Positions 4,244-59,056 of a stretch of 64,000 nucleotides of DNA are shown here, piece by piece; positions within the stretch are counted from its first letter, which is position 1; the number at the start of each line of letters is the position of its first letter. Below the pieces are notes generated by a model. The model was given only the letters and a program-made list of their open reading frames with translations, did no database searches and had not been told where the DNA came from. The translations under genes and the position numbers were made by a program. Source of the DNA: Candidatus Taenariivivens baikalensis. Lineage in GTDB: Bacteria > Omnitrophota > Omnitrophia > Omnitrophales > Aquincolibacteriaceae. The stretch lies in the NCBI GenBank assembly GCA_009691445.1, contig SICL01000004.1, positions 30,708-94,707 on the forward strand, read 5' to 3'.

Positions 4244-4672
4244 TTAAGCAATCAGAACAGCCTGACCGCCGGCTTTTTCAATCTTAGCCTTGGCTGACTC
4301 ACTAAAACGATGGGCTTTGACTATCACGGGGATTGAAATCTCTCCGGCCCCAAGAACCTTCAGGCCTGATTTTATTTTCTTAATCGTACCCTGCGCTTTT
4401 AAAATCTCAGGCGTCACTTCTTTGTGCCCAAGCTCGGCAATCTCACCGATATTGATGATGGCATACCGCGTTTCAAAACTAACATTGCTGAAACCGCGCT
4501 TGGGTAATCGGCGATACAAGGGATTTTGCCCCCCTTCAAAACCTCCGCGACGGGTATATCCAGACCGTGATTTTTGACCTTTTTGTCCGCGGCAAGATGT
4601 TTTCCCATGACCGGAACCAATACCGTGACCAATCCGCTTTCTGTTTTTCTTGTAGGGTTTTTTCGCTCTCAT
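4244..4672 (-). CDS. rplO: 50S ribosomal protein L15
   Basis: The Gly/Arg-rich N-terminus and L15 core are present. The ORF overlaps the rpsE stop, and there is no L30 gene between them. Confidence 0.9.
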
Positions 4673-5244
4673 GACTCGGAACTCTCATCGGTTGACTCAT
4701 CAAGATCGAGCCGCTCTTTACGATCACAAAGCTGCTCCATACCATGCAACGTTGCCTTGAGCACATTAATCGAATTGTCACTTCCCAAACTCTTGGTCAG
4801 AATATCTTTAATACCGCAGGATTCACACACAGCTCTCACAGCGCCGCCCGCAATAATTCCTGTACCCGGGGCTGCCGGCTTCAGAAAGACACGAGCCGCG
4901 CCGTAGCGTCCGTACACTTCATGAGCGATGCTCGTCCCCTTCATCTTAATTTTAATCTTACTCTTGTGAGCAGCGGTAAGCGCCTTACGGATCGCATCCG
5001 AAACTTCATTGGCTTTGCCTAGGGCATAACCAAGCTCTCCAGCACCGTTACCAACAATCACCAAAGCACTAAAATGAAACCTTTTTCCACCCTTAACCAC
5101 TTTGGCGCAACGATTCACTTGAATCACTTTTTCATACGGTGTGACGCGAAGAGTCTCGACGATTTTCACCGTTGCCAATGGAATTGTTTCCACAACTTCA
5201 ACTCGCTTTTCTTCTACATGTGCCTCGGTTTTTTTATCCGTCAT
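4669..5244 (-). CDS. rpsE: 30S ribosomal protein S5
   Basis: S5 dsRBD and C-terminal domain motifs are present ([27 protein letters not shown]). There is an acidic C-terminal tail. Confidence 0.95.
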
Positions 5245-5267
5245 AAGCTCTTCTCATTTTCCTTCAT

Positions 5268-5624
5268 TTAGAACTGGATTCCCGCTTTGCGAAGAGATTC
5301 CGCAAGGGCCTTCACGCGTCCATGATATTTATAACCCGCACGATCAAAAGCGATTTTCGAGATTCCTTTGCTCTTAAGTTTTCCCGCAAAAACTTCGCCC
5401 AATTTGTCAGCCTTCACGGTCTTAGAGCCTTTAACAGTTTTTTGAAATTCCTTTTCACTCGTGGCAACCGAACAAATCGTTTTAGCTTGAATATCATCGA
5501 TCACCTGAACATACATGTGGTTCAAGGAGCGGTGAACACAGAGCCTCGGCCGGTCCTGCGTTCCCGTGATTTTTTTACGTATACTCTTATGCCTTGCGGC
5601 TCTTGCTATTTCTTTTTTTAGCAT
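5268..5624 (-). CDS. rplR: 50S ribosomal protein L18
   Basis: The L18 family sequence ends in RKAGIQF. Confidence 0.9.
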   Translation of the reverse strand: MLKKEIARAARHKSIRKKITGTQDRPRLCVHRSLNHMYVQVIDDIQAKTICSVATSEKEFQKTVKGSKTVKADKLGEVFAGKLKSKGISKIAFDRAGYKYHGRVKALAESLRKAGIQF

Positions 5625-5639
5625 AAATGGCTCTTACGA

Positions 5640-6176
5640 TTAACCAACCGTCTTTCCTTGTTTGCGGCGAATTACTTCACCGACATAATGAATGCCTTTA
5701 CCCTTATAAGGTTCGGGCTTATGAGAAGATCGAATATCAGCGGCCAACTGCCCCACCATCTGCTTATCTAATCCAGAAACCGCCACACGGGTCGGGTTAG
5801 GACAATGAACCACGATCCCTTCCGGTATATCATGCTCAATCGGGTGGGTAAACCCAAGCGCCATAACAAGCTTCTTACCCTTTACTTCCGCCTTGTAACC
5901 AACACCGACAATTTCGAGCTCTTTTTTATAACCATCAACCACACCGCGCACCATATTTTGGAGCAGACTGCGGGTCAAGCCGTGAAGCGCTCGATCCGAA
6001 TTAATATCCGTGGGACGACTAACTTCAACGTGACCATCCTTCACCGCAACCTTCATGCGGGGATGAACTTCCATCTGAAGCTTTCCTTTCGGCCCCTGAA
6101 CAGAAACGGTCAGGTCCTTAATTGCGACTTGCACGCCACTGGGGATTTCTACTGGCTTTTTTCCAATTCGAGACAT
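5640..6176 (-). CDS. rplF: 50S ribosomal protein L6
   Basis: The ORF starts MSRIGKKPVEIPSGVQV and has the two-domain L6 fold. Confidence 0.95.
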   Translation of the reverse strand: MSRIGKKPVEIPSGVQVAIKDLTVSVQGPKGKLQMEVHPRMKVAVKDGHVEVSRPTDINSDRALHGLTRSLLQNMVRGVVDGYKKELEIVGVGYKAEVKGKKLVMALGFTHPIEHDIPEGIVVHCPNPTRVAVSGLDKQMVGQLAADIRSSHKPEPYKGKGIHYVGEVIRRKQGKTVG

Positions 6177-6191
6177 ACGCTCCTCAACCCT

Positions 6192-6590
6192 TTACCAAAC
6201 TTTACACAGCAGTTCGCCGCCCACATTTAACTTTCTTGCTTCCTTATCCGTCACAACTCCACGCGACGTCGAAATAATCGCAATTCCAAGTCCACCCTGC
6301 ACGCGAGGCAACTCTTCCGACCCTTTATAGGTCCGAAGACCTGGTTTAGAAACACGCTTTATCCCTCGAATTGCGGGCGATTTTCCGCGAATATACTTCA
6401 GATGAATCCGCACGAAATTTTTATTTCCTTCGTTAAAGGGTTTTACACTGGTGACAAACCCCTCTTCTTTTAAAATATCCGCAATACGGGTAGTCATCTT
6501 CGAGGTCGGAACGGTAACCTTATCCTTTTTAGCACTCGATGCATTTCGAAGCACCGTTAAAAAATCAGCTACAAAATCCGTGACAGGCAT
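6192..6590 (-). CDS. rpsH: 30S ribosomal protein S8
   Basis: The S8 family ORF ([17 protein letters not shown]...) ends in GGELLCKVW. Confidence 0.95.
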
Positions 6591-6610
6591 TTCTTTTTCT
6601 CCTTATTACT

Positions 6611-6649
6611 GTCATTCCCGAATACTTCTACTGGGAATCTATTCTTTTG
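6611..6649. repeat. Family-A short hairpin GTCATTCCCGA...TGGGAATC between rpsH and rpsZ.
   Basis: A short inverted repeat with the ATTCCC/GGGAAT stem is read directly from the sequence. It shares the GTCATTCC terminus with other family-A copies. Confidence 0.5.
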
Positions 6650-8405: not shown

Positions 8406-8605
8406 GACTTGACCTCCGATTTTTTCTGACGCATCACTGTTAAAATACGCGCAATATCCCGCCGAGTATTCTGTATCACTGATTGTCTTTCTAGCTTCCC
8501 AGTCTTAAGCTGGAAGCGGTATTGCATCAGTTCTTTTCGAAGGTTGCCTGCTTTTTCGGCCAACTCTTCAATGCTCAAGTTAAGAAACTCTGCTACCTTC
8601 GCCAT
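8402..8605 (-). CDS. rpmC: 50S ribosomal protein L29
   Basis: The L29 helical protein has LRKELMQYRFQLKTGKL. The ORF track starts at a GTG at 8623 that overlaps rplP. The ATG at 8605 is preceded by a GGAGAGG Shine-Dalgarno and abuts the rplP stop, so it is preferred. Confidence 0.85.
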   Translation of the reverse strand: MAKVAEFLNLSIEELAEKAGNLRKELMQYRFQLKTGKLERQSVIQNTRRDIARILTVMRQKKSEVKS

Positions 8606-8606
8606 A

Positions 8607-9023
8607 TTATTGTACCTCTCCACGTATCACAAACTTGGTTCTGAATGGCAACTTATGAGCGCAGAGCCTAAGAGCGGCCTTAGCCAACGCTTCGGGAAGC
8701 CCACCCATTTCAAAAATTAAACGGCCAGGCTTAATCACCACCACATAATATTCAGGGGCGCCCTTCCCTTTTCCCATCCTGGTTTCAGCTGGCTTTTTAC
8801 TGTAAGCTTTGTCGGGGAACACACGTATCCACACTTTTCCGCCCCGCTTGATGTGCCGCGTCAAAGCCACGCGAGCCGCCTCAAGCTGAATTGACGTCAT
8901 ATAACCACATTCAAGCGCCTTAAGTCCAAAATCCCCGAAAGAAATCGTGCTGCCACGGGTGGCAACACCCCCCATCCAACCGCGCTGCTGTTTGCGGAAT
9001 TTTACTCGTTTTGGCATTAACAT
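8607..9023 (-). CDS. rplP: 50S ribosomal protein L16
   Basis: The L16 family ORF has [15 protein letters not shown]. Confidence 0.95.
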
Positions 9024-30931: not shown

Positions 30932-31181
30932 TTTCATAAAAGAGCTTTCCGTGGTCAGCAATCGCCTTGCCGTAAAAAATAATTAGCCACGTGGTTTTTT
31001 TTCTGAAAGCTGGTTGCTGACAGCAGAAAGCTCTTGCTGTAGAATTACGAAAAATCAGGGGCGATTCTCCGGCGCATTCATCGCCTTGTCAAATATTGAA
31101 AATATTCAATCCGAATTAACGAGAATGAAATCGTTTATGACCTACCGGCAGGCCGGGAACCGTCCCTAAAATGGAGAGCTT

Positions 31182-34342: not shown

Positions 34343-34355
34343 TATTATGAATAAT

Positions 34356-34425
34356 GTCATTGCGAGCGAAGCGAAGCAATTTCAGCGCTAAGATTGCCGC
34401 GCTCGCTCCGCTCCCTCGCAATGAC
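34356..34425. repeat. Family-A 70-bp nested palindromic element (GTCATTGCGAG ... CTCGCAATGAC) inside the atp operon between atpH and atpA
   Basis: 11-bp perfect terminal inverted repeats are read directly from the sequence. A near-identical copy in opposite orientation lies at 54761-54830. Confidence 0.85.
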
Positions 34426-34438
34426 AAATTAGGAGAAC

Positions 34439-35947
34439 ATGATGCTAAAACCCGAAGAAGTTACACAAGCAATTCAGGATGAAATCAAAAAATACAGCTC
34501 CAAACTTGAAATGGAGTCCGTGGGTTATGTGCTTCAAGTCGGCGATGGCATTGCGCGCGTCTACGGTCTGGATCAGGTCATGGCCAATGAAATGGTCACC
34601 TTTCCCGATCAAACCATTGGGCTGACCCTGAACCTCGAGCCCGACAATATCGGAATCGTGATCCTGGGACCGGACCGTAATATCAAAGAAGGCGACCAAG
34701 TCAAACGCACGGGCCAGATCGCCCAAGTACCCGTCGGAATCGAACTGCTTGGCCGCATTATTAATCCCTTAGGATTGCCGTTGGATGGTAAGGGGCCAAT
34801 CACGTCAACTAAGAACCGCCCGCTTGAAACCGTTCCTCCTTCCGTGATTCGCCGCCAGCCCGTTAAAGAACCTCTACAAACAGGAATCAAGGCCATCGAT
34901 GCCATGATCCCAATTGGACGCGGGCAACGTGAACTCATTATCGGCGACCGGCAAACCGGAAAAACCGCCATCTTGATTGACACGATCATCAATCAAAAAA
35001 ATTCTGGTGTTTTTTGTATTTATGTCGCCATCGGCCAGAAACTTTCCAGTGTCGTTGCCCTGGCACAAACACTTGAAAAGCACGGCGCTATGGCATACAC
35101 CACGATCGTCTGCGCTTCATCGGATGACGCGGCTCCGCTTCAATACTTGGCTCCGTACGCCGGATGCGCCATTGGGGAAGAGTTTATGTATACAGGTAAA
35201 CACGCGCTCGTGGTCTACGACGATCTCTCCAAACACGCCGTGGCTTACCGCGAACTCTCACTTCTCTTGCAGCGTCCTCCCGGCCGTGAAGCCTATCCGG
35301 GTGATGTGTTTTATCTTCACTCCCGTCTTCTTGAGCGCGCGGCAAAAATGCGGGAAGATTTGGGTGGCGGATCTCTCACCGCGCTTCCCGTCATTGAAAC
35401 TCAGCTTGGCGACGTGTCGGCTTATATCCCCACCAATGTAATTTCAATTACCGATGGTCAGATTTATTTGGAAAGTGATTTATTCTATTCGGGGGTGCGT
35501 CCTGCCATTAACGTGGGTCTTTCGGTATCCCGTGTCGGCGGAAACGCTCAGACTAAAGCCATGAAGCAAGTCGCGGGGACGCTTCGTCTCGCGCTCGCCC
35601 AGTACCGTGAACTGGCGGCCTTCGCGCAACTCTCCACGGATCTTGATCAGACCACCAAGGATCAGCTTATCCGCGGAGAGCGCATGGTGGAAATCTTGAA
35701 ACAGGGTGTTTTTCAACCGCTTCCGTTTGAAAAACAGGTGATGATCATTTTTGCCGCCAATATCGGCGCACTTGATGATATCCCGCTCGCCAAGCTCAAG
35801 GACTTTGAGACGGGCCTTTACCCGTTTATCACAAAAAACTACCCCGACGTAGAACACAAAATCCAAAAAGAAAAGGCCCTGAGCGATGCCCTTAAGGCCA
35901 CCCTCACGGAAGCCATTAAGAAATACAAAGGACAACTGACCCAATAA
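34439..35947 (+). CDS. atpA: ATP synthase F1 subunit alpha
   Basis: The ORF has the Walker A GDRQTGKT and a 502-aa alpha-family sequence. Confidence 0.98.
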
Positions 35948-36070
35948 CCAAGATCCAAGAAACAATAACCAAAGAATGACCAAATTCCAAATTTTCAATT
36001 TTTTATTTGAAATTTTAATGATTGATTATTGTTTGGTGTTTGTATCTTGGTGATTGGTTATTAGAACACT
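35948..36070. repeat. Family-B long imperfect hairpin (CCAAG/CCAAAT-rich arm then TTGG/ATTTGG-rich arm) between atpA and atpG
   Basis: The inverted-repeat arms are read directly from the sequence. Related copies lie at 38469-38560 and 62594-62685. Confidence 0.7.
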
Positions 36071-36988
36071 ATGTCAGGCAAATTAAGAGAACTCAAAAAC
36101 CGGATCCGCAGCGTTGAGAATACAAAAAAGATCACGCGTGCGATGGAAATGGTAGCGGCCTCCAAGCTGCGCCGCTTTCAGACCCTGATGTCCCAAGCCC
36201 GTCCCTACACACTGGGATTGGAAAGCCTGCTGAAGCGCTTGAACCAGAATCTGCCTTCCAAGAGTCATCCTTTTTTTGAATCTCGGGAAGAAAAAAAAAT
36301 CGGTGTGGTTTTGATGACTTCGGATTCTGGACTCTGCGGTTCGTACAATCTTGATCTGCTGGAACATACGCGGGATTTTCTCCGTGAAAATAAATCAGAA
36401 AAAATATGGATTGGAGTGGGCAAGGCCGGCATTGCTGAACTGCGACGTCTTGGTTGCAAGATTCATAAGGAGCTGATTGAAATTCGGCCAGCGCGGTTCG
36501 ATGAGATTTTGAACGACCTCAAATCGATGCTCGAATCTCTTTTCCTGAGCAGGCAGGTGGACGCGGTTTATGTGATCTACAGTCACTCGTTGACGTCTTC
36601 AAGCTTTGCGGATGTTACCGAGAAACTGTTGCCGCTGGCCCAACCCGCCTCTACGCCCGTCATCGCGAACGAAGAGAAGCAATCTAACGCCGTTATTGCT
36701 CCTCGCAATGACAAAGAGCAAGACGTGGATTATATCTTTGAACCTTCGCCGGCATTTATTTTTGATAAGCTAATTCCGCTTTATTTTGAGTCTAAAGTAA
36801 GACAAGTGTTTCTCGAAGCCATCGTCTCCGAGCAGATTGCCCGTATGACGGCCATGCACGCCGCCACGCAAAACGCCAAAGAGATGATCAGCTCGCTTGT
36901 CTTGGAACGCAACAAAGCGCGCCAGGCTTCGATCACTAAAGAAATTATTGAGATTGTGTCGGGCTCTCAAGCCCTAAAAATAAAGTGA
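36071..36988 (+). CDS. atpG: ATP synthase F1 subunit gamma
   Basis: The gamma-family N- and C-terminal coiled-coil helices are present (MSGKLRELKNRIRSVENTKKITRAMEMVAASKLRR...). Confidence 0.95.
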   Translation: MSGKLRELKNRIRSVENTKKITRAMEMVAASKLRRFQTLMSQARPYTLGLESLLKRLNQNLPSKSHPFFESREEKKIGVVLMTSDSGLCGSYNLDLLEHTRDFLRENKSEKIWIGVGKAGIAELRRLGCKIHKELIEIRPARFDEILNDLKSMLESLFLSRQVDAVYVIYSHSLTSSSFADVTEKLLPLAQPASTPVIANEEKQSNAVIAPRNDKEQDVDYIFEPSPAFIFDKLIPLYFESKVRQVFLEAIVSEQIARMTAMHAATQNAKEMISSLVLERNKARQASITKEIIEIVSGSQALKIK

Positions 36989-37010
36989 GGCGTCTTTCGT
37001 GAAGCGTTAA

Positions 37011-38468
<1,458 letters not shown>

Positions 38469-41510: not shown

Positions 41511-41650
41511 CTTAAAGAGGGAAGAAAAGGGATGAAGATGAAAAAGGAAGAAGGTGGAAGAAGAGGGAGAAATCTTTTTTCGTTTTTTAATTCCTTCTTT
41601 TCCCCTGTTCTTCCTTCTTGTTACACCTTTTTCCCTTCGGGAATAACTTT
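41511..41650. repeat. A 57-nt polypurine tract followed by a T-run and a roughly 50-nt polypyrimidine tract, forming an imperfect long hairpin or triplex-prone mirror between nuoL and nuoM
   Basis: Plus-strand aagagggaagaaaagggatgaagatgaaaaaggaagaaggtggaagaagagggagaaa is followed by ttccttcttttcccctgttcttccttcttgttacaccttttcccttc. Confidence 0.7.
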
Positions 41651-45343: not shown

Positions 45344-48300
45344 ATGACCAACAATCCAAAGACATGTCATAAAAAAATAATGTGGAATAGAGGTGTTCTG
45401 AAGGACCGTTTTGCGCCGTTTCTTTTACTCTTGACCTGTTTAAGCCTGACAACAGTGGGTTTCGTCTTTCTCAGTCGCATGACCCATGAAAAAGCATCCC
45501 TTAAGTTTGAGTCGGAATGGCGGGATATCAAGGCCAGGATCCAGACCCATGTCAATATGTACACTGAACAGCTTTACGCAAACCGCGCGCTCTTTGCCGC
45601 AAGTAAGAGTGTTGAACGTAATGAGTGGGCGTCGTTTATAAACAACCAACGTCTCTCAAGTCAGTTCCCAGGAATTGTCGCAAGTGAATTTATTGAATCG
45701 GTTTCAAGCGACGCATTGGGGGACTTTATCCGCTCCGTCAAAGAGGATAAGAGCATCGATCCAGAAGGATATCCCACATTTGATGTCTTCCCCAAACATC
45801 AAACAAAAAATCATTATATTGTCACTTATGTTGAGCCTTTTACGTCTAATCGAAAAGTGTTTGGATATAACATGTCTTCAGACGGCATGCGTTCTGAGGT
45901 TTTGCAAAGAGCCGCTGAAACCGGAAAAGCTGTAGCCACAAGCAAGATTCACCTTATTCAAGATCCGTCCCATGCGGGCCTAATCATCGCTTTGCCCATC
46001 TATAAAAACAAACTCCCCGTTACCAACAAGACAGAGCGGTTAACTGCGCTTCAGGGGTTCGTCGCAAGCGTCATCGATACTTCTGCTTTTTTTAGACACG
46101 ACTTCATTCTGTCCACGGCTACCAACCAAATCGGTTTTGAGATTTTCGATTCTGCCCTGACAACCAAAGATCACCTCTTGTTTAATTTTGATCATTCGCT
46201 CAATTCCACAAATCAACACGACAAGGCGAAGTTCTCGGTCAACACGCCGATGGTGATCGGAAACCGAACATTCATCCTGAACTTCACAGCCTCACAAAAT
46301 TTCCGTCTGGGTGAGGGACAGGAGTGGTTTCCCTACTGGATTTTAGGCATCGGTATCCTCACCAGCTTTCTTTTTTTCACCCTTCTGCAAGTTTTAGCCT
46401 CGAGAGAATCCAAAGCCCTGCAATATGCTGACGAAAAGACGGAGGAAATTAAACTGCTGCTTGAGGCTTCAACGGACGGCATCTATGGAATTAATCTCGA
46501 AGGTCGGTTTACTTTTATGAATTCTGCCGCGCTTCAATTGCTGGGTTACGCTCTTGAGGAAGTTATCGGAAAAAATATTCATCACTTAGCTCATTTAAAA
46601 AAGTTAGACGGTGCCCCCTACCCCATCGAAGATTGCCCGATCTATCAAGCATTTCAATCTGGAATCTCCTGCCGAGTCGATACTGAGGTTTTGTGGCACA
46701 AAGACGGAACCTCCTTCCCCGTCGAATATTCTGCTTCACCGATGATTCGCCGGGGAAAGATATTAGGGTCATTGTGTACTTTTAGTGATATCACCGAGCG
46801 TAAAATAGCAGAGGAAAAATTAGCTCGAGCGGCAGCGGAAGCCGAAATTTTGCATCAAGCAGCTACTTTCGCCACACGGGATCTCACCTTTGATGTGGCC
46901 CTTAAAGAAACGCTTGCCTTAGTTTGTCAGGGTATCCATTGGCCCGTGGGACATGTCTGTAAATTGTCCCCCGATCACAAGGGCTTGGAATCCACCGATA
47001 TCTGGTATTTGAACGATCCAGAAAAGTACCACCCCTTCAAAAAATTGACGGAAAGTTTATATTTCCCTATCGGAACGGGGCTGCCCGGACGCATTGCCCA
47101 ATCTCGTGACATTGCTTGGATTGATAATGTGCAGAATGACCATAATTTCCCGCGAAAACAAGTTTGCGCCGAAGTCGGTATTACCTCTGCTTTTGCTTTT
47201 CCGATTACGATTGAAGGACGGGTCGTTGCGGTTTTAGAGTTCTTCATCCCCAAAGCACTAAAACCGGATGCGGACATTTTGAAACTCGTGGGCAATCTCT
47301 CAAAACAACTTCAAGTGGTTTTTGAGAAAAAAAGGGCGGCGGAAGCGGCGGAAGCGGTGGAAGCAAGCCGTCTCCGGCTGCAGGCTGTTTTGGATTCTGC
47401 CACAGAAGTTTCCATTATTACAACAGACACTCAAGGGCTTATCACCGTCTTTAACAAAGGAGCAGAAAAAATGCTGGGCTGGAAAGCAGAGGAAATGCTT
47501 TACCAGAAAACGCCGGAGGTTATTCACACTTTTGAGGAAGTCTCCGAGCGGGGAAAAGAAATGTCTCTCACTTCAGGGAAAACTGTGGAGGGATTTGAAG
47601 TTTTTGTGGCCAATGCGCGTGCAGGAAAGCCTCAGCTCAGGGAATGGACTTACGTCAAAAAAGACGGCACCCGTTTCCCCGTCAGTCTTTATATTACGGG
47701 AGTGTACAATGCCAGCCATGAGCTTTCTGGCTTTTTGGGAATCGCTACGGATATCACAAAAATTAAACAAGCTGAAATTCAGCTTCAAGAAGCGGCGCGT
47801 CAAGCATACGAAGCGTCGCGTATAAAATCTGATTTCTTAGCCACCATGAGCCATGAAATTCGTACGCCAATGAACGCCATTCTCGGAATGAGCGACTTAC
47901 TGACCGAGACGCCTTTGACGGCTGAACAAAAAGACTATCTGGCACGATTATCCCGCGCGGGCGAGACTCTTTTAAGCATTATTAATGACGTGCTTGACCT
48001 TTCAAAGATTGAAGCCCGCTCCATGGAGATTGAGCATATTGCATTTAATTTAAAAGAGCAGGTAGGAAAAACGGTCGACTTGCTGGCCTCTAAAGCTCAT
48101 CAAAAAGGGCTCGCGATTCATTGGCAGCTCGACCCAGAGATTCCGGCGATACTGCAGTCTGACCCAACCCGCTTGTGGCAAATCCTGCTGAATTTGATCA
48201 ACAATGCCATCAAGTTTACTGAGGAAGGTGAGATTTCCTTGTCGGTAAAACCGGTAAAAAAGGAGATTGAACATAAAGAGAAAAATGAAATTTGGCTTCA

Positions 48301-50332: not shown

Positions 50333-51730
50333 ATGAAAAACTTAATGCGCTTAAAACCAACCGCACCAGGTTTTCTTCTTTTAGTCCTTTCTCTTTTCGG
50401 GCCATCTTCCACCGCCTTTGCCGTTGGTTCGGGCGGTTTTGAAAATGCGACCTTCAGTTCAATTGCTATCTCTCAGAGTAATGCCGTCACCGCTCAAGGC
50501 GAAGAACCGGCGGCTATTTCCTATAACCCGGCAGGAATTGCTAATCTAAAAGGCCTGCAAGTGGAATCCAATATGGGTTTTATCAGCGTAATCACCCATA
50601 TCAGTAAGCAGAGCCAGGACGGAAAAACTCAGAGCTCCGGGACACTCGTGGAAGTTCCCACGGGCTATCTGACTTTCAATCCCGGAAAAGTCTTTAATGA
50701 CCGGCTGGTGCTAGGAATCGGGTCCGATTCGCCCTTTGGCCTCTCCAACAAGTGGGATTCAGCCAATCAAGCAGTCCGGTACACGGGCTACAAGAACTGG
50801 CTCAAAATGTATACCCTGAAACCCACGGTTGCCTTCAAATTCACGGATTGGTTGTCGGTTGGTGCCGGGGCCATGAATTACCGCGTTTTTAATTTTGGAT
50901 CAGTCCAAGCCTACCCTAACAATGCTATTGTTCCGGGATCTCCGGACGGCCAGCTTCGACTCAATATGAGCGGCTCTCATTGGGGTTGGCATTTCGGAGC
51001 GCGTGTGAAACCAGCTCCAAAGCATCAGTTTGGATTTTATTTCCGGAGTCCTGTTAAAATTCACATCCGAGGAAAAGTAAAGGTGGAACGCTCTTCCTTT
51101 GCGCCGGGAGGACGTTTTGAAAGCGGTGCTTATTCCAATCTTGATCTTCCGATGAATATGACCTGGGGCTATGCTTTCATGCCTAATCCCAAGAACACTA
51201 TTGAAGCAGATTTTGGCTACACACGCTGGTCTCAGCATAATCGTCTGGATGTGATTTCTACCGACAGCATCAGCACCTTCGATGACATGATTTTAGCCGC
51301 CATCAGTCTCAATGCCCATGATTATGACGACACCTTCTCGATTCATCTCGGAGGAAATCACAAGGTCAATGACCGCCTGACCTTGCGCGCGGGAACATTA
51401 TTTTATACGGCCGCGGTGCCCAAAAACCATCTTATCCCTGCGGTGCCGGACAGTAACAGGCTGGCTTTTTCTGCAGGTCTCAGCTACCAGATCAATCAAA
51501 TGATGGCCCTGGATGTTTGCTATATGAACATGATTGGCCTGCGCAGAGGCGTGAATAATGATATCGGCGAATCCCTCGGCGGATCTGGGGATGGAAAATA
51601 TACTTCTGATTATAATATTTTCCTGATCTCAATGAGGTTGATGTGGGAAGATCTGTTTGACAAGATGCTGCCTGGAAGTAAACCCTCAGAACCTGCTCAA
51701 AAGTTGGAAGTTTCCCCGGAAATAAAATAA
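50333..51730 (+). CDS. outer-membrane long-chain fatty acid/hydrophobic compound transporter, FadL/OmpP1/TodX family
   Basis: A signal peptide and the family-typical ISYNPAG motif near the N-terminus of a roughly 440-aa beta-barrel are present. Confidence 0.75.
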   Translation: MKNLMRLKPTAPGFLLLVLSLFGPSSTAFAVGSGGFENATFSSIAISQSNAVTAQGEEPAAISYNPAGIANLKGLQVESNMGFISVITHISKQSQDGKTQSSGTLVEVPTGYLTFNPGKVFNDRLVLGIGSDSPFGLSNKWDSANQAVRYTGYKNWLKMYTLKPTVAFKFTDWLSVGAGAMNYRVFNFGSVQAYPNNAIVPGSPDGQLRLNMSGSHWGWHFGARVKPAPKHQFGFYFRSPVKIHIRGKVKVERSSFAPGGRFESGAYSNLDLPMNMTWGYAFMPNPKNTIEADFGYTRWSQHNRLDVISTDSISTFDDMILAAISLNAHDYDDTFSIHLGGNHKVNDRLTLRAGTLFYTAAVPKNHLIPAVPDSNRLAFSAGLSYQINQMMALDVCYMNMIGLRRGVNNDIGESLGGSGDGKYTSDYNIFLISMRLMWEDLFDKMLPGSKPSEPAQKLEVSPEIK

Positions 51731-52236
51731 CGAAGCGTCGACTGCAGTTTTAGAATCGCCTCATCCTTCAAGCGGCTGATCGGATTTCCGTAATAACGTT
51801 TGATCGTCTTTTCAATATCTTCATCCGTGGCAAGAACGATTTCAATATCCCGAATGCCGGGCACGCACTCGAGATCTTTAAGAGAAGCGAGATTCATGGG
51901 ATCAGGGATAGCCACAAGCATCATCCCTTCCTGGATCGTAATCGGGATTAAACCATGTTCGACAGCGAACTGTTTTGAAACCGCTTGCAGGGCCTTGGCC
52001 TGAATCTTGATTTGAGATAAATCCACAAACTGTTTTCCAAACTGAATTGCCAGGGCCTGATATAAAATATTTTTCGAAATGACTCCGTTATCAATCAGTA
52101 TCTTTCCAAGAGGGCGCTTCTTCTCATCGTATTTCTGGAAATTTAACGCGTCTTCAAGATCCTGCCCCTGAACCCACCCCTGATGAAGCAAAATTTCTCC
52201 GATTCGTATGGGCTTCCGTTGTGTGGATATGATCAT
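51697..52236 (-). CDS. stand-alone MshEN-like domain protein (tandem c-di-GMP-binding motifs plus T2SSE_N fold), with no ATPase domain
   Basis: Two 24-aa copies of the RLGxxLLxxG(L/V/I)(L/V/I)xxxxLxxxLxxQ motif are present (RIGEILLHQGWVQGQDLEDALNFQ and PLGKILIDNGVISKNILYQALAIQ). They are followed by a GspE/PilB N-terminal-domain-like segment (LIPITIQEGMMLVAIPDPMN...IEIVLATDEDIEKTIKRYYG). Confidence 0.7.
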   Translation of the reverse strand: MIISTQRKPIRIGEILLHQGWVQGQDLEDALNFQKYDEKKRPLGKILIDNGVISKNILYQALAIQFGKQFVDLSQIKIQAKALQAVSKQFAVEHGLIPITIQEGMMLVAIPDPMNLASLKDLECVPGIRDIEIVLATDEDIEKTIKRYYGNPISRLKDEAILKLQSTLRYFISGETSNF

Positions 52237-52348
52237 CCTTAACCTCTTGGTTAATTAAACCTTACCTGTCGCAAACACTTTCTACAAGGGCTTTGTTGGT
52301 TTTATCTCTATCAATGCTGATCAGGTTGGGGGGGATCATCTCTCATTC

Positions 52349-52532
52349 GTCATTGCGAGCTACAGCGAAGCAATCTCGGGTTGTGCGCTTGAGATTGCCG
52401 CGTCGTCCTGCGGGACTCCTCGCAATGACTAAAATCTTTTCGTTGTCATTGCGAGCTGCAGCGAAGCAATCTTGCTGGTTGTGCCCAAGGATTATTGCCG
52501 CGTCTCCGCCCAAGCGCGGGACTCGCAATGAC
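52349..52532. repeat. Two tandem family-A elements of 81 and 88 bp, each bounded by GTCATTGCGAG...CTCGCAATGAC, separated by a 15-bp linker
   Basis: Read directly from the sequence. Both units contain an inner GCAATC...GATTGC palindrome. The internal sequence differs between units. Confidence 0.85.
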
Positions 52533-52584
52533 TACCAACGGAAATGAACCGCACAATGACAGAATAAGAGGATCTTATTCCCAC

Positions 52585-53055
52585 TTATCCTCGAATGAAG
52601 TCTTGCCTGGAAGAATCCCATATAAAAAGCGCTGAGTCGAAAGCCTTCCCCGCCTGAATGGAAAAAATTAAATAGGCGGCATTGGGATAAACAGGGTTTC
52701 CCTCCCATAGAGCCTGGCGGCGATCTTCTTCGGAAAAGGCTGCTGGGGCATCAATATGAGAATGATAAATGAGACAAATAATCAGGCTGTCGCGACGAAG
52801 TCTTTGATGAACTAATAGAAGTTCGCGAGGATCGATTAAATAAGCAGCGCGGGAAGTGCGAGGATATGTCTGAGGATCCTTGCGATGAAGTTCATCCTGC
52901 ACATTTCTACAGGGAATGATTTCTAGCAGTGTATCGGGATTCTTATTCGTCGCCAGACCTAAGCCACAGCATTCCTGGGGATATTCTTGTTCGGCGTGCT
53001 GCTGAATGCGAAAGAGTAAATTCTGCGGAATGGTGAGGGGCATATGATTCCACAC
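52585..53055 (-). CDS. JAMM/MPN+ (Mov34) family metalloprotease
   Basis: The JAMM motif is intact: the ECCG glutamate, then HSHIDAPAAFSEED (H-x-H-x7-S-x2-D). The ORF is 156 aa. Confidence 0.75.
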   Translation of the reverse strand: MWNHMPLTIPQNLLFRIQQHAEQEYPQECCGLGLATNKNPDTLLEIIPCRNVQDELHRKDPQTYPRTSRAAYLIDPRELLLVHQRLRRDSLIICLIYHSHIDAPAAFSEEDRRQALWEGNPVYPNAAYLIFSIQAGKAFDSALFIWDSSRQDFIRG

Positions 53056-53060
53056 ATTTT

Positions 53061-53136
53061 GTCATCCCCGAAATTTCTTGTCGAGGAGAGGATCCAAAAG
53101 GCTTCTGGATTCCCGCCTAAAGCATGCGGGAATGAC
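53061..53136. repeat. Family-A element GTCATCCCCG...GCGGGAATGAC
   Basis: Terminal inverted repeats lie between the JAMM gene start and the upstream gene stop. Confidence 0.6.
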
Positions 53137-53146
53137 AAACACCTAA

Positions 53147-54739
53147 TTAATCCTGGTGGATAATTCCGGCAATTCGGCCAGACCTGATTTGAACGCGTAC
53201 ATGGGCAGACTGTGCTTTGGATCCCGAACGCACAGTATGAATCACCGCATCAAACACCTCTGCGCTGGATCCTAAATCAATCGTCGGCGAGTGAACATCC
53301 GCTGAACTGAGGTTTTTACCTTGGGCATTAACGAGATCCACATGATACGTCGTTTGCTCTGTGGTCCAAAACTTGTGATCTATCGCCAGATCTTTAAAGC
53401 TAAGCAATTGGTTTTGTAATGAAAAATCTTCCAGGGGAGAGGATGTTTCAAACCCGTATTTCCCAATCAGATCCCGGCGCTCAATAAGCACCTTGGCAAC
53501 GGTTTCGCTGTCCTCGGGCTTGGAAAGTTTTCCGGTTTTCACAATCGCACGAATATTCTCATCCGAAAAGGACATGATAATCTTGGTTGCCCAAAGCGCA
53601 TCCGCACGGGTTAAGTCCTTAAACGCGTAATGCGGCAGCTGGGTTTTGTATTTCGCGGGATCAAAATAACGGTTGTCAAAATAACCGACTGCCGGAGAAA
53701 CACTCATCAGATTTTCTCCCGTATCTTTCCAACGTTTTTGCCAGGGCTTTTTCCAAAATCCAAAAGAAAAAATGGCTTTCCCGGTATCACCATAATCCAC
53801 AAAATACTCGTGAGTGGCCATGGGAGGCTTGGCGCCGTTCGAAGAACTGCCTAGTGCATCCTGAAAATCCATCAGGTAATGTTTCAAAACTGGCTTTCCA
53901 TTGTCACTCACCAGAAGATCCTGCGTATTACCTTCCCGCAGGTCATCCTCACCTAACCAAGAACCAAAGACACGCAAAGCCCGAAGCGCCCGTAAGCAAT
54001 CATGATTAATTTTATCTTGAGGATCAGCGCTGCGGCGGCCTTGAAATCGAAAAACCCCTTTGTCTTCTCCTGCCGGTGTTTTTCTCGCGGAAGCCCGGTA
54101 ACGGCCTTCTTCGTCCTGGGGAACAAAAGTAATATATTGTTCAAAACGTTCCTGCGTTAGTTTTTTCTGAAAGCCGGTGTCGTCATAGACAGTCGCAGAG
54201 GGGGCAATGGAGACCTGCTTCAAGGTGAAGGTCGCAATTGTATATTGAGGAACTGAATAGCCAATCGCGTGAAAAAAACGGCTGGCGATGGAATCGGCGG
54301 ATGTCTGAAGCTCCAACGAGTCTTCGGAATCGAATTTCAAAAAATAAGCTCCTCCCTTGGAATCCTTGATAAAAAATCCAGGATGAAGACCGTTGAATTT
54401 GCCTTGAGTGATCGTAAGTCCGTTGCTGAAATCAGGGCCTTCATTTTCCGCAGGACCTTTGGCCAGCTCCTCAGCACTGAGGGGCTTGCGGGCGTGACGA
54501 TTCACAAAGAACGCTGAATCCGGAACTTCATCATAGGCATTAACATCCAGCGAACGGAGTTTTTTCTTGGCAACAAAGCGGTAAAGCCGGTCCAAATGAA
54601 GAAAATTGGTGCCTTCGTAGTAGACGTTCTGATTAAAAAGATCGGCGAAAAAACTGGTCTCTTGTGTTTTGATCTCTTGCGCAAAGGCAGGCGCCGACAG
54701 CGGAAGCGTTGCTGCAATCATGACAATGGCTATTGTCAT
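53147..54739 (-). CDS. secreted hypothetical protein (530 aa with signal peptide)
   Basis: The ATG at 54739 gives MTIAIVMIAATLPLSAPAFAQE, a classical signal peptide. I do not recognise the family. The track's longer N-terminus reads through repeat 54761-54830. Confidence 0.6.
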   Translation of the reverse strand: MTIAIVMIAATLPLSAPAFAQEIKTQETSFFADLFNQNVYYEGTNFLHLDRLYRFVAKKKLRSLDVNAYDEVPDSAFFVNRHARKPLSAEELAKGPAENEGPDFSNGLTITQGKFNGLHPGFFIKDSKGGAYFLKFDSEDSLELQTSADSIASRFFHAIGYSVPQYTIATFTLKQVSIAPSATVYDDTGFQKKLTQERFEQYITFVPQDEEGRYRASARKTPAGEDKGVFRFQGRRSADPQDKINHDCLRALRALRVFGSWLGEDDLREGNTQDLLVSDNGKPVLKHYLMDFQDALGSSSNGAKPPMATHEYFVDYGDTGKAIFSFGFWKKPWQKRWKDTGENLMSVSPAVGYFDNRYFDPAKYKTQLPHYAFKDLTRADALWATKIIMSFSDENIRAIVKTGKLSKPEDSETVAKVLIERRDLIGKYGFETSSPLEDFSLQNQLLSFKDLAIDHKFWTTEQTTYHVDLVNAQGKNLSSADVHSPTIDLGSSAEVFDAVIHTVRSGSKAQSAHVRVQIRSGRIAGIIHQD

Positions 54740-54760
54740 CCTAAGGCCTCTTTGCCTTAC

Positions 54761-54830
54761 GTCATTGCGAGGGAGCGGAGCGACCGCGGCAATCTCAGCG
54801 CTGAGATTGCTTCGCTTCGCTCGCAATGAC
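54761..54830. repeat. Family-A 70-bp element, a near-identical reverse-orientation copy of 34356-34425
   Basis: GTCATTGCGAGGGAGCGGAGCGAcCGCGGCAATCTcAGCGCTGAgATTGCTTCGCTTCGCTCGCAATGAC aligns to the reverse complement of the atpH-atpA copy with about 4 mismatches. Confidence 0.85.
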
Positions 54831-54833
54831 GAC

Positions 54834-56162
54834 TTAAAAGGGTGTGCTGGTTTTAACATAATAATTGGTTCCTTCATCTCCATGGGCCATTTCCAACGAC
54901 AGCAACACAACGTTTGCCAAACTCGTGCGAATCCCAACTCCATACGATTCACGCAAATTCTTTGATTTCAACTTGTCAAAATTTTTGAAGACCTGCCCTG
55001 AATCCAGAAATACCACGGCGTCCGTCTTCCAATCTCTGTATTCCCAAAGATTGTACCGATACTCTACATTGAAAACGACCATGCTGCGGTCTGTAAACCG
55101 GTTGTAGCGATAGGCCCGAAGGGTTTCGCTCATCTGGTCCGACATCCCGTAACCTCCAAGCCGCGCCATTTGATGAAAGGGCACAGAGTGTCCGTTTGTT
55201 TCAGAGTTATGTTCGCCGTAAGCACGAATCCCAAGTACGCGGCGCGGAGTGCCCAGCTTAAAATAATGACTGAGTTCCATTTCGTATTTGAAAAACTCGG
55301 CATTGGAACTGTAAAGACCCTGGTTATAGCTGAAGCCAAACTTTTGAAGACCGCCGGTTGTGGAATTTCCAGCCTGATCACGGGTATCACGCTTCGCCTC
55401 AGTTTTATAAACTAAAAGTTCATCCCCGTGAAGCCCGGGAATGCCGGCGCTGCCATTGAAAATACCACTGTTATAACGGCCCATCGATCCATCACGACCA
55501 TCCGCGATGTGTACATTGCGGTAGCCAAATTTAAAATCCAGGGAATGCGCCACGTCCGGCTTGTACCCAAGAAGATATTGAAGATTGGTTTCTTCCCGTT
55601 TGTACACATAACCATCTCCCCGGCTGGAATGGGGACCGATGCCATAGAAATGTTCCTGGGGATGGGTTTCATATTGAAAATACCCCTGAGTCCGGAATCC
55701 GGTTCCGCCGATGCGCTCTACGCCAAGACGCGATCCAACGTTAAAATTATAATGGGACGCAAAATGGATCCAGCTATCCGCCACCAAATCCGGAAAACGT
55801 TCCTTCTGATGAAGGGCCCTGACAAAATCAACTTCAGCGCCTATATCCAGACGCGCCAAGCTAATCAAATTGAGTTTTGGTGTCAGACCTTTTTTGCCTA
55901 GCGTGTCATACACCCACTGGATCTTTTCCATCACGTGGTGTTTTTCCATATAGACCAAGCTCTTATCCACGGGGTAACGCAGGATTTCAAAGGGATATTC
56001 CGGAAAATGCAGCAGACTTCGTTCAAACAGAGTGGCCTGTTTAGGTTCGCTCTGAAGCGGAGCATATTTATCGTAAGAACTATCCTGGGCAAACAACGGG
56101 GGCGAAGCAAGAAGCAACACGGCTGTAAAACGGATGATGGATAAGAATGATTTTTGTTTCAT
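54834..56162 (-). CDS. Omp85 (BamA/TamA/TpsB superfamily) outer-membrane beta-barrel protein, short form
   Basis: The ATG at 56162 gives the signal peptide MKQKSFLSIIRFTAVLLLASPPLFAQD. The C-terminal barrel has alternating aromatic/hydrophobic strands, a Gly-rich motif, and a terminal ...YVKTSTPF ending in Phe, as in the bacterial surface antigen D15 domain. Confidence 0.65.
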   Translation of the reverse strand: MKQKSFLSIIRFTAVLLLASPPLFAQDSSYDKYAPLQSEPKQATLFERSLLHFPEYPFEILRYPVDKSLVYMEKHHVMEKIQWVYDTLGKKGLTPKLNLISLARLDIGAEVDFVRALHQKERFPDLVADSWIHFASHYNFNVGSRLGVERIGGTGFRTQGYFQYETHPQEHFYGIGPHSSRGDGYVYKREETNLQYLLGYKPDVAHSLDFKFGYRNVHIADGRDGSMGRYNSGIFNGSAGIPGLHGDELLVYKTEAKRDTRDQAGNSTTGGLQKFGFSYNQGLYSSNAEFFKYEMELSHYFKLGTPRRVLGIRAYGEHNSETNGHSVPFHQMARLGGYGMSDQMSETLRAYRYNRFTDRSMVVFNVEYRYNLWEYRDWKTDAVVFLDSGQVFKNFDKLKSKNLRESYGVGIRTSLANVVLLSLEMAHGDEGTNYYVKTSTPF

Positions 56163-57368: not shown

Positions 57369-57454
57369 TCCTGAACCCTTCGATTGTCATTCATCCGTCA
57401 GCCAGGGATCCGTCCTTCTCGGCGGAGGCTAGAAACACCTCAGAATGACATTCG
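57364..57454. repeat. Family-A element with CGATTGTCATTC / GAATGACATTCG inverted termini between rnhB and rplS
   Basis: A 12-bp inverted repeat (1 mismatch) flanks a roughly 55-nt loop. The GTCATTCC motif recurs. Confidence 0.6.
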
Positions 57455-58523: not shown

Positions 58524-58540
58524 AAGTTTTTAGAGGATTT

Positions 58541-58700
58541 GTCATTCCCGCGCCACCGCCTATGACGGGGTCCCGTCCGAAGGCGGGAAAAGCGGGAATC
58601 CAGGCTGTTAAAAACTGGATCCCCAATAAAAAATTTTCGCCAGCGAACGAATCCGTCCATTTTTGGGCGAATTGGGGATGACATCCCGGAAAAATTTCCG
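58541..58700. repeat. Family-A element cluster: GTCATTCCCGCG...GCGGGAATCC hairpin plus GGGATGACATCCC and TCCCGGAAAAATTTCCGGGA palindromes. It occupies the position where rimM is normally found.
   Basis: Inverted repeats are read directly from the sequence. No rimM-like ORF lies between rpsP and trmD. Confidence 0.6.
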
Positions 58701-58961: not shown

Positions 58962-58980
58962 TGGATCCTCCTTTTAAATA

Positions 58981-59056
58981 GCTTTCAGCTATCAGTCTTC
59001 AGCTATCAGCAAGGTTGACTGAAAGCTGTTAGCTGACGGCTGAAAGCTGTTAGCTG
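58981..59056. repeat. Two short tandem direct repeats: TCAGCTATCAG twice (14-bp period) and CTGAAAGCTGTTAGCTGACGG about twice (21-bp period)
   Basis: Read directly from the sequence between the murA stop and the rpsP start. The first repeat half is related by reverse complementarity to the second (GCTTTCAGC vs GCTGAAAGC). Confidence 0.8.

Follow-up and report, generated by a model that had tools for sequence, protein, structure and literature searches.

In a 64,000-nt stretch of contig SICL01000004.1 from the omnitrophotan bacterium Candidatus Taenariivivens baikalensis (hereafter the window), positions 52349-52532 are occupied by a tandem pair of nested palindromes. We identify this pair, with a probability of about 0.8, as two adjacent head-to-head dimers of a CGTC/TGTC-tagged repeat of the repetitive extragenic palindromic (REP) type, a small non-autonomous mobile DNA element that we refer to as the ATTGCGAG family. 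A preliminary description of the window had proposed a dispersed nested palindrome resembling REPs, bacterial interspersed mosaic elements (BIMEs), or MITEs (miniature transposable elements with inverted repeats) and distinct from a CRISPR array; this classification is borne out and can be sharpened to head-to-head dimers of CGTC-tagged REPs. A CRISPR array was rejected because there are just two units, which are inverted-repeat palindromes of unequal length lying 15 nt apart. The pair and its immediate surroundings comprise the following features.

52349-52429 (52348..52430 with flanking bases), no strand assigned: unit 1, an 81-nt head-to-head dimer of the ATTGCGAG family
52445-52532 (52444..52533 with flanking bases), no strand assigned: unit 2, an 88-nt head-to-head dimer of the ATTGCGAG family
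52549-52561, minus strand: decayed solo half-site CCGCACAATGACA (TGTCATTGTGCGG on the minus strand), downstream of unit 2 and probably the remnant of a third unit

The lengths of the two units and their identical 11-nt inverted termini (GTCATTGCGAG/CTCGCAATGAC, perfect in both) are exactly as first reported. In unit 1, an outer stem (P1, 52349-52359 / 52419-52429) encloses a central hairpin (P3) formed by CGAAGCAATCTC and GAGATTGCCGCG (52366-52377 / 52391-52402), together with a side hairpin, GTCC-TGCG-GGAC, at 52405-52416. The base flanking its left end is a C, giving a CGTC tag, and its right end reads AGTC; unit 2 carries TGTC as its left tag and CCGC..GCGG as its side hairpin. An inner GCAATC/GATTGC palindrome had been ascribed to both units. 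It is exact in unit 1 (GCAATCTC/GAGATTGC), but the right inner arm of unit 2 is broken up (GGATTATTGC) and retains no exact GATTGC hexamer. The two units are 76.9% identical, with the differences chiefly in the loop and the 3′ side hairpin. Both are predicted to fold well, as RNA and DNA alike, into a long outer stem around the central hairpin and a small 3′ hairpin; for unit 1 the values are −41.4 kcal/mol (z −4.9) as RNA and −23.4 kcal/mol (z −4.5) as DNA. The terminal 11-mer, at ≤1 mismatch, occurs 10 times in the 64-kb window against an expectation of 1.23, and 10 or more occurrences were reached in none of 100 shuffles.

The anatomy of the family emerges from a comparison of 130 elements, the sample to which the following statistics refer unless stated otherwise. 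The base preceding the left terminus is C in 86 copies and T in 37 (C/T in 123/130), and the base following the right terminus is G in 92 and A in 33 (G/A in 125/130). Because of this flanking-base bias, the true terminus of the element is CGTC/TGTC...GACG/GACA. The second flanking base is also skewed, pyrimidine-rich on the left (97/130) and purine-rich on the right (102/130), and the −1 and +1 bases are complementary in 100/130 copies versus approximately 70 estimated from their individual frequencies. This pattern may mean that the outer stem extends weakly into the flanks, or it may result from insertion at the pyrimidine-purine step of a palindromic target (between C and G, or T and A). 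No target-site duplication was detected in the 130 elements: for k = 1-8 the counts match chance or come close to it, dropping under it for k = 1 and 2.

Every full copy is a head-to-head dimer assembled from two kinds of arm. Short arms read GTCATTGCGAG-CGAAGC-GAAGCAATC, long arms read GTCATTGCGAG-GAGCGAAGCGAC-GAAGCAATC or have a GC-rich hairpin in place of the linker, and elements are either short plus long, in either orientation, or short plus short. In approximately 20 of 71 asymmetric copies, units 1 and 2 among them, the long linker is a stable GC hairpin of unrelated sequence. The 12-nt terminus and the GCAATC core are near-invariant across phyla, and the central stem covaries beyond GCAAT: pair 2 is C-G in 63 copies, T-A in 29, and G-C in 3; pair 3 is A-T in 58, C-G in 32, and T-A in 7; pair 4 is G-C in 50, T-A in 12, A-T in 10, and C-G in 5. 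The triplet ahead of GCAAT likewise changes in step with its partner (GAA/TTC, GTG/CAC, GCG/CGC). After GCAAT, most copies from other genomes continue with C, C, A, bases that pair there with TGG of the partner arm; the window copies continue with CTC, TTT, or CTT. The stem of a half-unit begins with AT but spans only 5 bp (ATTGC...GCAAT) around an interior of 12-18 nt, and a half-unit alone folds at −2.7 kcal/mol (z ≈0), compared with −9.0 kcal/mol (z −5.5) for a half of the published CGTC-1 family. Thus, a half by itself does not fold, and it takes the dimer to form a structure, namely a three-way junction. Each dimer has five parts: an outer stem of 11-12 bp, (C/T)GTCATTGCGAG / CTCGCAATGAC(G/A); a linker on one side that is short and rich in purines; a central hairpin with GAAGCAATC / GATTGCYKC as its basis; a loop that varies; and a longer linker on the other side, often with its own GC-rich hairpin. 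With this layout, the element folds into the three-way junction as single-stranded DNA or RNA.

Further copies of the ATTGCGAG family occur elsewhere in the window.

34356-34425 (34355..34426 with flanking bases), plus strand: full 70-nt dimer with TGTC tags at both ends, in the atpH-atpA spacer
54761-54830 (54760..54831 with flanking bases), minus strand: full 70-nt dimer with CGTC tags at both ends
36658-36713, plus strand: decayed 54-nt copy (CGTCATCGCGAAC...CTCGCAATGACA), in frame in atpG, where it encodes V197-D214 (VIANEEKQSNAVIAPRND)

Together with the tandem pair, these make four dimers at three intergenic sites and one intragenic copy. Eight of the ten dimer ends in the window carry CGTC or TGTC, and the remaining two AGTC. 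The 34356-34425 dimer is 95.7% identical to the reverse complement of that at 54761-54830. Such near-identity, over a distance of 20 kb and with the two copies inverted relative to each other, indicates recent spread within the genome. The atpH-atpA dimer begins 12 nt past the atpH stop and ends 12 nt ahead of the atpA start, leaving the GGAG ribosome-binding site untouched; an Omp85-family gene stops 2 nt ahead of the 54761-54830 dimer, and a secreted-protein gene starts (54739) 20 nt beyond it. The tandem pair itself sits in a 348-nt spacer between two minus-strand genes, which encode JAB-domain (52585-53055) and MshEN-domain (51697-52236) proteins. Each dimer of the window combines a GAAGCAAT arm with a ATTGCCGC arm, which leaves the central stem with two mismatches at its base. 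On one strand a G-U pair is possible there, and as RNA that strand is 7-11 kcal/mol more stable; at both single-dimer loci it is the non-transcribed strand. Matches at 18565 (GTCATTGTGAG, within a coding region) and at 47882 and 48326 were taken as chance.

The copy in atpG allows comparison with related organisms, for which we aligned 24 Omnitrophota-type AtpG proteins (alignment A2). The AtpG of the window has a 100% identical counterpart in a metagenome-assembled genome of a 'Candidatus Omnitrophica bacterium'. The 18-aa insert is absent from the closest homolog, P0002 (288 aa, 81% identity by BLASTP). Five other homologs carry inserts of their own, all in one and the same loop: P0008 has ...SETTKQPSEIASL..FARND, P0046 several partial units (EIASLRSAELAMT...PPRNDVIASAAKQS), P0006 a ATTCTGAG-type relative (RHSEERSDEES...LRSAQDD), and P0062 and P0064 further variants. 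Additional repeat-like peptides, MVGVDPCVDPLLEIRADTCLAGRQAEVRPYTRTF at the N-terminus of P0024 and STEGGSPPKDGSVRLLADASGG at columns of about 150-170 in P0062, may be other repeat families or mis-called starts. In an AlphaFold model of the AtpG encoded in the window (overall predicted local distance difference test score of 83.8), the insert falls between the last beta-strand and the C-terminal helix, within residues 194-220, which score below 50. This is the region in which chloroplast and cyanobacterial gamma subunits hold an extra regulatory segment, and the loop is therefore known to tolerate insertions.

At the DNA level, the Omnitrophota loci L122 and L123 both have intact CTCGCAATGACG ends within atpG, and L122 also has a full dimer in its atpA-atpG spacer. 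Their atpH-atpA spacers are empty, at 13 and 19 nt, versus 96 nt in the window. The atpG copy of L122 (4182-4240) has directly abutting ends, CTCGCAATGAC followed by GTCATTGCGAG (AATGAC/GTCATT) with no base between and with the CGTC tags overlapping by CG, which may bear on the position of the cleavage site. In the same locus (4605-6013), atpD is called as two open reading frames (ORFs), one of 212 aa and one of 257 aa, with a 4-nt overlap; a frameshift or an error in assembly may be the cause. Presence in some Omnitrophota, absence from others, and differing inserts in the same loop show that the element is mobile. Overall, the copies show that the ATTGCGAG family inserts without target-site duplication, prefers short spacers just past stop codons, and is able to insert in frame into a protein loop that tolerates it.

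With its 22 fixed bases, the pattern GTCATTGCGAG-N(40-70)-CTCGCAATGAC is expected to match by chance about once in 596 Gb. In a genome collection of that size, we found it at no fewer than 120 loci in at least 12 phyla, and in IMG/VR on at least 120 viral contigs. Copies thus exist well beyond the locus, and a purely local duplication, the alternative raised in the preliminary description, is ruled out by the genome loci. Among the matches listed, the hosts include Alpha-, Beta-, and Gammaproteobacteria, with many Bradyrhizobium and sphingomonads and with Rickettsiales; the Bacteroidota Pedobacter, Mucilaginibacter, and Flavobacterium; Chloroflexota, Patescibacteria including Berkelbacteria, Planctomycetota, Desulfobacterota, Zixibacteria, and Margulisbacteria; and Cyanobacteriota, Microcoleus, Caenarcanales, Moduliflexus, and a Clostridiaceae metagenome-assembled genome. 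The plasmid collection yielded only Novosphingobium and Methylosinus megaplasmids, and the cultured-phage collection only half-sites in Helicobacter canis prophages. Because matches in those collections are few, curated plasmids and phages are not the main carriers. Two of the IMG/VR contigs, L162 and L189, are real tailed-phage structural modules with three exact-termini copies each.

842-919, 6429-6511, and 8549-8631: copies in L162
1178-1257, 4324-4393, and 5157-5238: copies in L189

These copies lie between portal, major head/capsid, tail/tail-fibre, and baseplate genes. Phages have therefore themselves been invaded by the ATTGCGAG element and could ferry it between hosts.

Copies inside the atp operon, as first reported, are confirmed by the atpH-atpA dimer and the in-frame atpG copy. 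From such locations the preliminary description had proposed a selected role as RNA structure or protein-binding site. On that account, the dimer would be a cis-acting operon RNA, serving as a 3′-exonuclease barrier, an RNase processing site, or a translational decoupler that sets, for example, atpH/atpA stoichiometry. The strong predicted folds fit this idea, as does the placement in operons, past a stop codon and ahead of the ribosome-binding site that follows, and roles of this kind are proposed in the text of the CGTC repeat survey discussed below (PMC3733652) and in the REP literature. Co-directional (51 loci) and convergent (22) contexts are also preferred over divergent ones (12). Orientation relative to transcription is only weakly biased: at co-directional loci, 20 copies have the short arm 5′ in the transcript and 9 have it 3′, and within the window both orientations occur (two loci versus one). 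However, the transcribed strand is on average the less stable one (mean +1.1 kcal/mol; lower in 21, higher in 29), and for both single dimers of the window it folds more weakly than its complement (−32.0 versus −43.4 and −36.3 versus −43.2 kcal/mol). One copy is translated inside atpG, relatives have empty atpH-atpA spacers and different inserts, and the same sequence stands beside unrelated genes in many phyla and in phages. Searches with Rfam returned only tRNAs at gathering score in the window and nothing meaningful at E ≤ 10 in 52300-52580. An intrinsic terminator was likewise rejected, as no terminator-like site or T-tract overlaps the elements in 51600-55000. The mixed orientation, the strand stabilities, the lack of a T-tract or an Rfam match, the coding insertion, and the lineage-specific presence together favor a DNA-level mobile element, with RNA effects, if any, secondary. 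We consider a selected operon RNA improbable, and the step from operon location to a selected RNA or protein-binding role is not supported by these tests. Once inserted, the element would be co-transcribed and may incidentally form a stable stem-loop in the mRNA, as a side effect and not the cause of its abundance.

The closest described class is that of Di Nocera, De Gregorio and Rocco 2013 (PMC3733652), whose text distinguishes two REP superfamilies, GTAG- or CGTC-tagged. As described there, CGTC repeats have a CGTC/TGTC/CCTC tag, an 8-9-bp stem that begins with AT, a 4-5-nt loop, and a short unpaired tail with the consensus CCA; their dimers are mostly head to head, with the tags outside and 20-100-bp, often structured, spacers. 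They lie near ORF 3′ ends, mostly between co-directional or convergent ORFs, are known from five phyla, and include in-frame genic copies, as in Rickettsia RPE-4 and RPE-6, with Neisseria dRS3 corresponding to CGTC-1. Using the peptide table of that paper, we reconstructed its four families, which according to the text and Additional file 3 are CGTC-1 ATTCCCGC (peptides VIPAKAGI/SFPRKRES), CGTC-2 ATTCTGAA-like (RHSELVSGS), CGTC-3 ATTGCCGGG (VIAGLDPAI), and CGTC-4 ATACCGTGG-like (VIPWLDHGI). Measured against this account, the ATTGCGAG family shares the CGTC/TGTC tag, a stem starting in AT, and dimers that are chiefly head to head, carry their tags on the outside, and have structured spacers. 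It shares as well the placement at ORF 3′ ends (window copies 2 and 12 nt past stops), in-frame copies, the lack of a linked transposase (in 17 window ORFs tested), the coexistence of several families in one genome, and a multi-phylum spread. At the tail position, most other-genome copies have CCA, in paired form, and window copies have CTC/TTT. Unlike the published repeats, the ATTGCGAG/GAAGCAAT stem belongs to none of the four families that can be followed through the text and Additional file 3, and the host range exceeds the five phyla given there, extending to Omnitrophota, Patescibacteria, Chloroflexota, Planctomycetota, Cyanobacteriota, and others, and to phages.

Relatives of the published type reside in the window as well, as revealed by a scan for tag-plus-hairpin units.

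53060-53137, no strand assigned: head-to-head heterodimer, TGTC-ATCCCC...GGAT-CCA / CTGG-ATTCCCGC-(9 nt)-GCGGGAAT-GACA
58540-58683, no strand assigned: head-to-head heterodimer, TGTC-ATTCCCGC...GCGGGAAT-CCAG / CTGG-ATCCCCAAT...ATTGGGGAT-GACA, between trmD and rpsP
6610-6641, plus strand: single CGTC-1-like unit, TGTC-ATTCCC-N13-GGGAAT-CTA, in a spacer of a ribosomal-protein operon
57385-57450, no strand assigned: degenerate ATTC-type dimer (TGTCATTCATCC...CCTCAGAATGACA), between rplS and rnhB

The co-resident ATTCCCGC units have 8-bp stems. The preliminary description had counted five or more intergenic sites, a figure that is not reached by the three sites of the ATTGCGAG family alone but holds when the four GTCATTCC-type relatives listed above are included, as at least seven intergenic sites of the window carry members of the one superfamily. 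The ribosomal-protein/rpoBC/EF-Tu block (window 1-29000) holds the single small CGTC-type unit at 6610-6641 and no ATTGCGAG-family dimer, and all other CGTC-type copies lie within 30000-60000. There are also long imperfect palindromes of non-CGTC type, namely 35943-36062 (atpA-atpG), 36982-37040 (atpG-atpD), 41541-41619 (after nuoL), 30940-31035 (upstream of a phosphoglycerate-mutase-like gene), and 58977-59051 (between rpsP and the EPSP synthase gene). Several of them are composed of short words, such as AGCTTTCAGCTATCAG or GAAACGTGAAGCG, and nearly all spacers of the atp operon hold some palindromic repeat.

Several results weigh against our identification of the pair as a mobile CGTC-tagged REP. 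The ATTGCGAG halves are without the 8-9-bp stem and 4-5-nt loop of the published repeats, and the VIAS../..ARND peptides do not appear in the supplements of PMC3733652, including its list of intragenic CGTC copies. Membership in the CGTC superfamily is therefore based on tag and tail, on the type of dimer, and on genomic behavior. A Pfam scan of 17 window ORFs, a set that leaves out mostly the ribosomal-protein/rpoBC block, found no transposase domain. In 2 Mb of sequence around 240 copies, just one pair of termini (845 nt) is spaced at 300-5000 nt. For the single orthologous pair of a filled (L061) and an empty (L003) site, the spacers are too diverged to give an exact junction at the DNA level. 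The census of copies in the source genome covers the 64-kb window, and the weak orientation bias at co-directional loci leaves some room for RNA-level effects.

A classical MITE would be an internally deleted insertion sequence (IS) of the DDE type, mobilized by a full-length IS with the same terminal inverted repeats. Perfect terminal inverted repeats of 11-12 bp, small size, and dispersed copies are what such an element would display, and bacterial MITEs such as Correia/NEMIS, Nezha, and Chunjie are likewise short, non-autonomous, bounded by terminal inverted repeats, and found in operons. However, MITEs leave target-site duplications and descend from DDE ISs that can be identified, and we found neither for the ATTGCGAG family. 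No duplication of 1-8 nt is present, which disfavors a DDE transposase, and a full-length parent IS is not evident because of the single 300-5000-nt pair of termini in the 2 Mb examined. The 17 window ORFs tested yielded no transposase, and the survey text reports none linked to CGTC repeats (PMC3733652). We therefore regard a classical MITE as very improbable. A cognate REP-associated tyrosine transposase (RAYT), which the preliminary description had thought might accompany the element, did not materialize either, there being no Y1 transposase among the 17 window ORFs tested. According to the survey text, CGTC repeats "apparently lack a dedicated transposase" (PMC3733652), and later papers that cite it (RepRanger 2025, an HUH survey of 2018) add nothing on CGTC mobilization. 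A text search of the literature for the literal element and peptide strings returned unrelated primer matches only.

Our preferred reading of the ATTGCGAG family as a mobile REP-type dimer suggests instead that it spreads as a folded single strand, which an enzyme recognizing the tag plus the stem would cut and rejoin in trans. By analogy with GTAG REPs and their RAYTs, this enzyme may be a single-strand transposase of the HUH/Y1 type, and we see its action in trans as the likeliest route of movement. Like the BIMEs and REP doublets (REPINs) that RAYTs mobilize, the family consists of inverted REP doublets that form a long hairpin and are the likely mobile unit, produces no target-site duplication, and occupies intergenic positions in tens to hundreds of copies. 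It differs in that the tag is CGTC/TGTC rather than GTAG and that no flanking RAYT is known for CGTC repeats. Moreover, GTAG REPINs are lineage-specific and vertically inherited, whereas the ATTGCGAG family keeps identical termini across phyla. REPINs and RAYTs are reportedly the subject of work by Bertels and Rainey in 2011, Nunvar in 2010, and Ton-Hoang in 2012. The AtpG insert also recalls the Rickettsia palindromic elements (RPEs), which are inserted in frame at structurally tolerant protein sites. RPE-1, however, exceeds the present elements in length, at about 100-150 nt, and has no sequence relationship to them, and RPEs are said to have been described by Ogata et al. in 2000 as restricted to Rickettsia, unlike the pan-bacterial ATTGCGAG family.

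A further alternative is that the element is a non-mobile DNA site, either bound by a nucleoid or topoisomerase protein, as are the BIMEs of Escherichia coli, or targeted by a recombinase of the IS110/Piv type, as is dRS3 of Neisseria. The near-invariant 12-nt terminus and GCAATC core would suggest a conserved protein partner, and dRS3, itself a CGTC-1 repeat, is an integration target of filamentous phages. Such a site would leave unexplained the in-frame coding insertions, the lineage-specific presence and absence, and the copies in phage structural modules, and we consider it extremely unlikely.

The repeats of the ATTGCGAG family have direct consequences for annotation. They create spurious ORFs at 52293-52547 (plus strand) and 52343-52528 (minus strand), of 84 and 61 aa, and a false 71-aa N-terminal extension (...SSLRAKRSNLSAEIAAVAPLPRND...) of the secreted protein annotated at 53147-54952 on the minus strand, whose real start is 54739. 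Peptides such as VIASEAKQS and ..PRND inflate protein families in the same manner, and variable loops are added to real proteins, as in AtpG.

The locus itself is an ordinary instance of a described class. Our findings go modestly beyond the earlier description in defining a structurally distinct member, in extending the hosts to Omnitrophota, many further phyla, and tailed phages, and in revealing repeated hits on the same AtpG loop. Whether the distinction runs deeper is doubtful: we think it rather unlikely that ATTGCGAG represents a separate, fifth CGTC family in which the entire three-way-junction dimer moves. If it does, its identical 12-nt termini in at least 12 phyla and in tailed phages would imply a very widespread or phage-borne mobilizing activity. 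The mobilizer might then be a single-strand nuclease, of a new HUH type or another kind, or else a host enzyme of universal occurrence, and pinning it down would answer the question, posed in 2013, of what moves CGTC repeats. The same termini occur from Bradyrhizobium to Patescibacteria, Omnitrophota, and phages, which makes this family good material for working out the mechanism of CGTC repeat mobilization.

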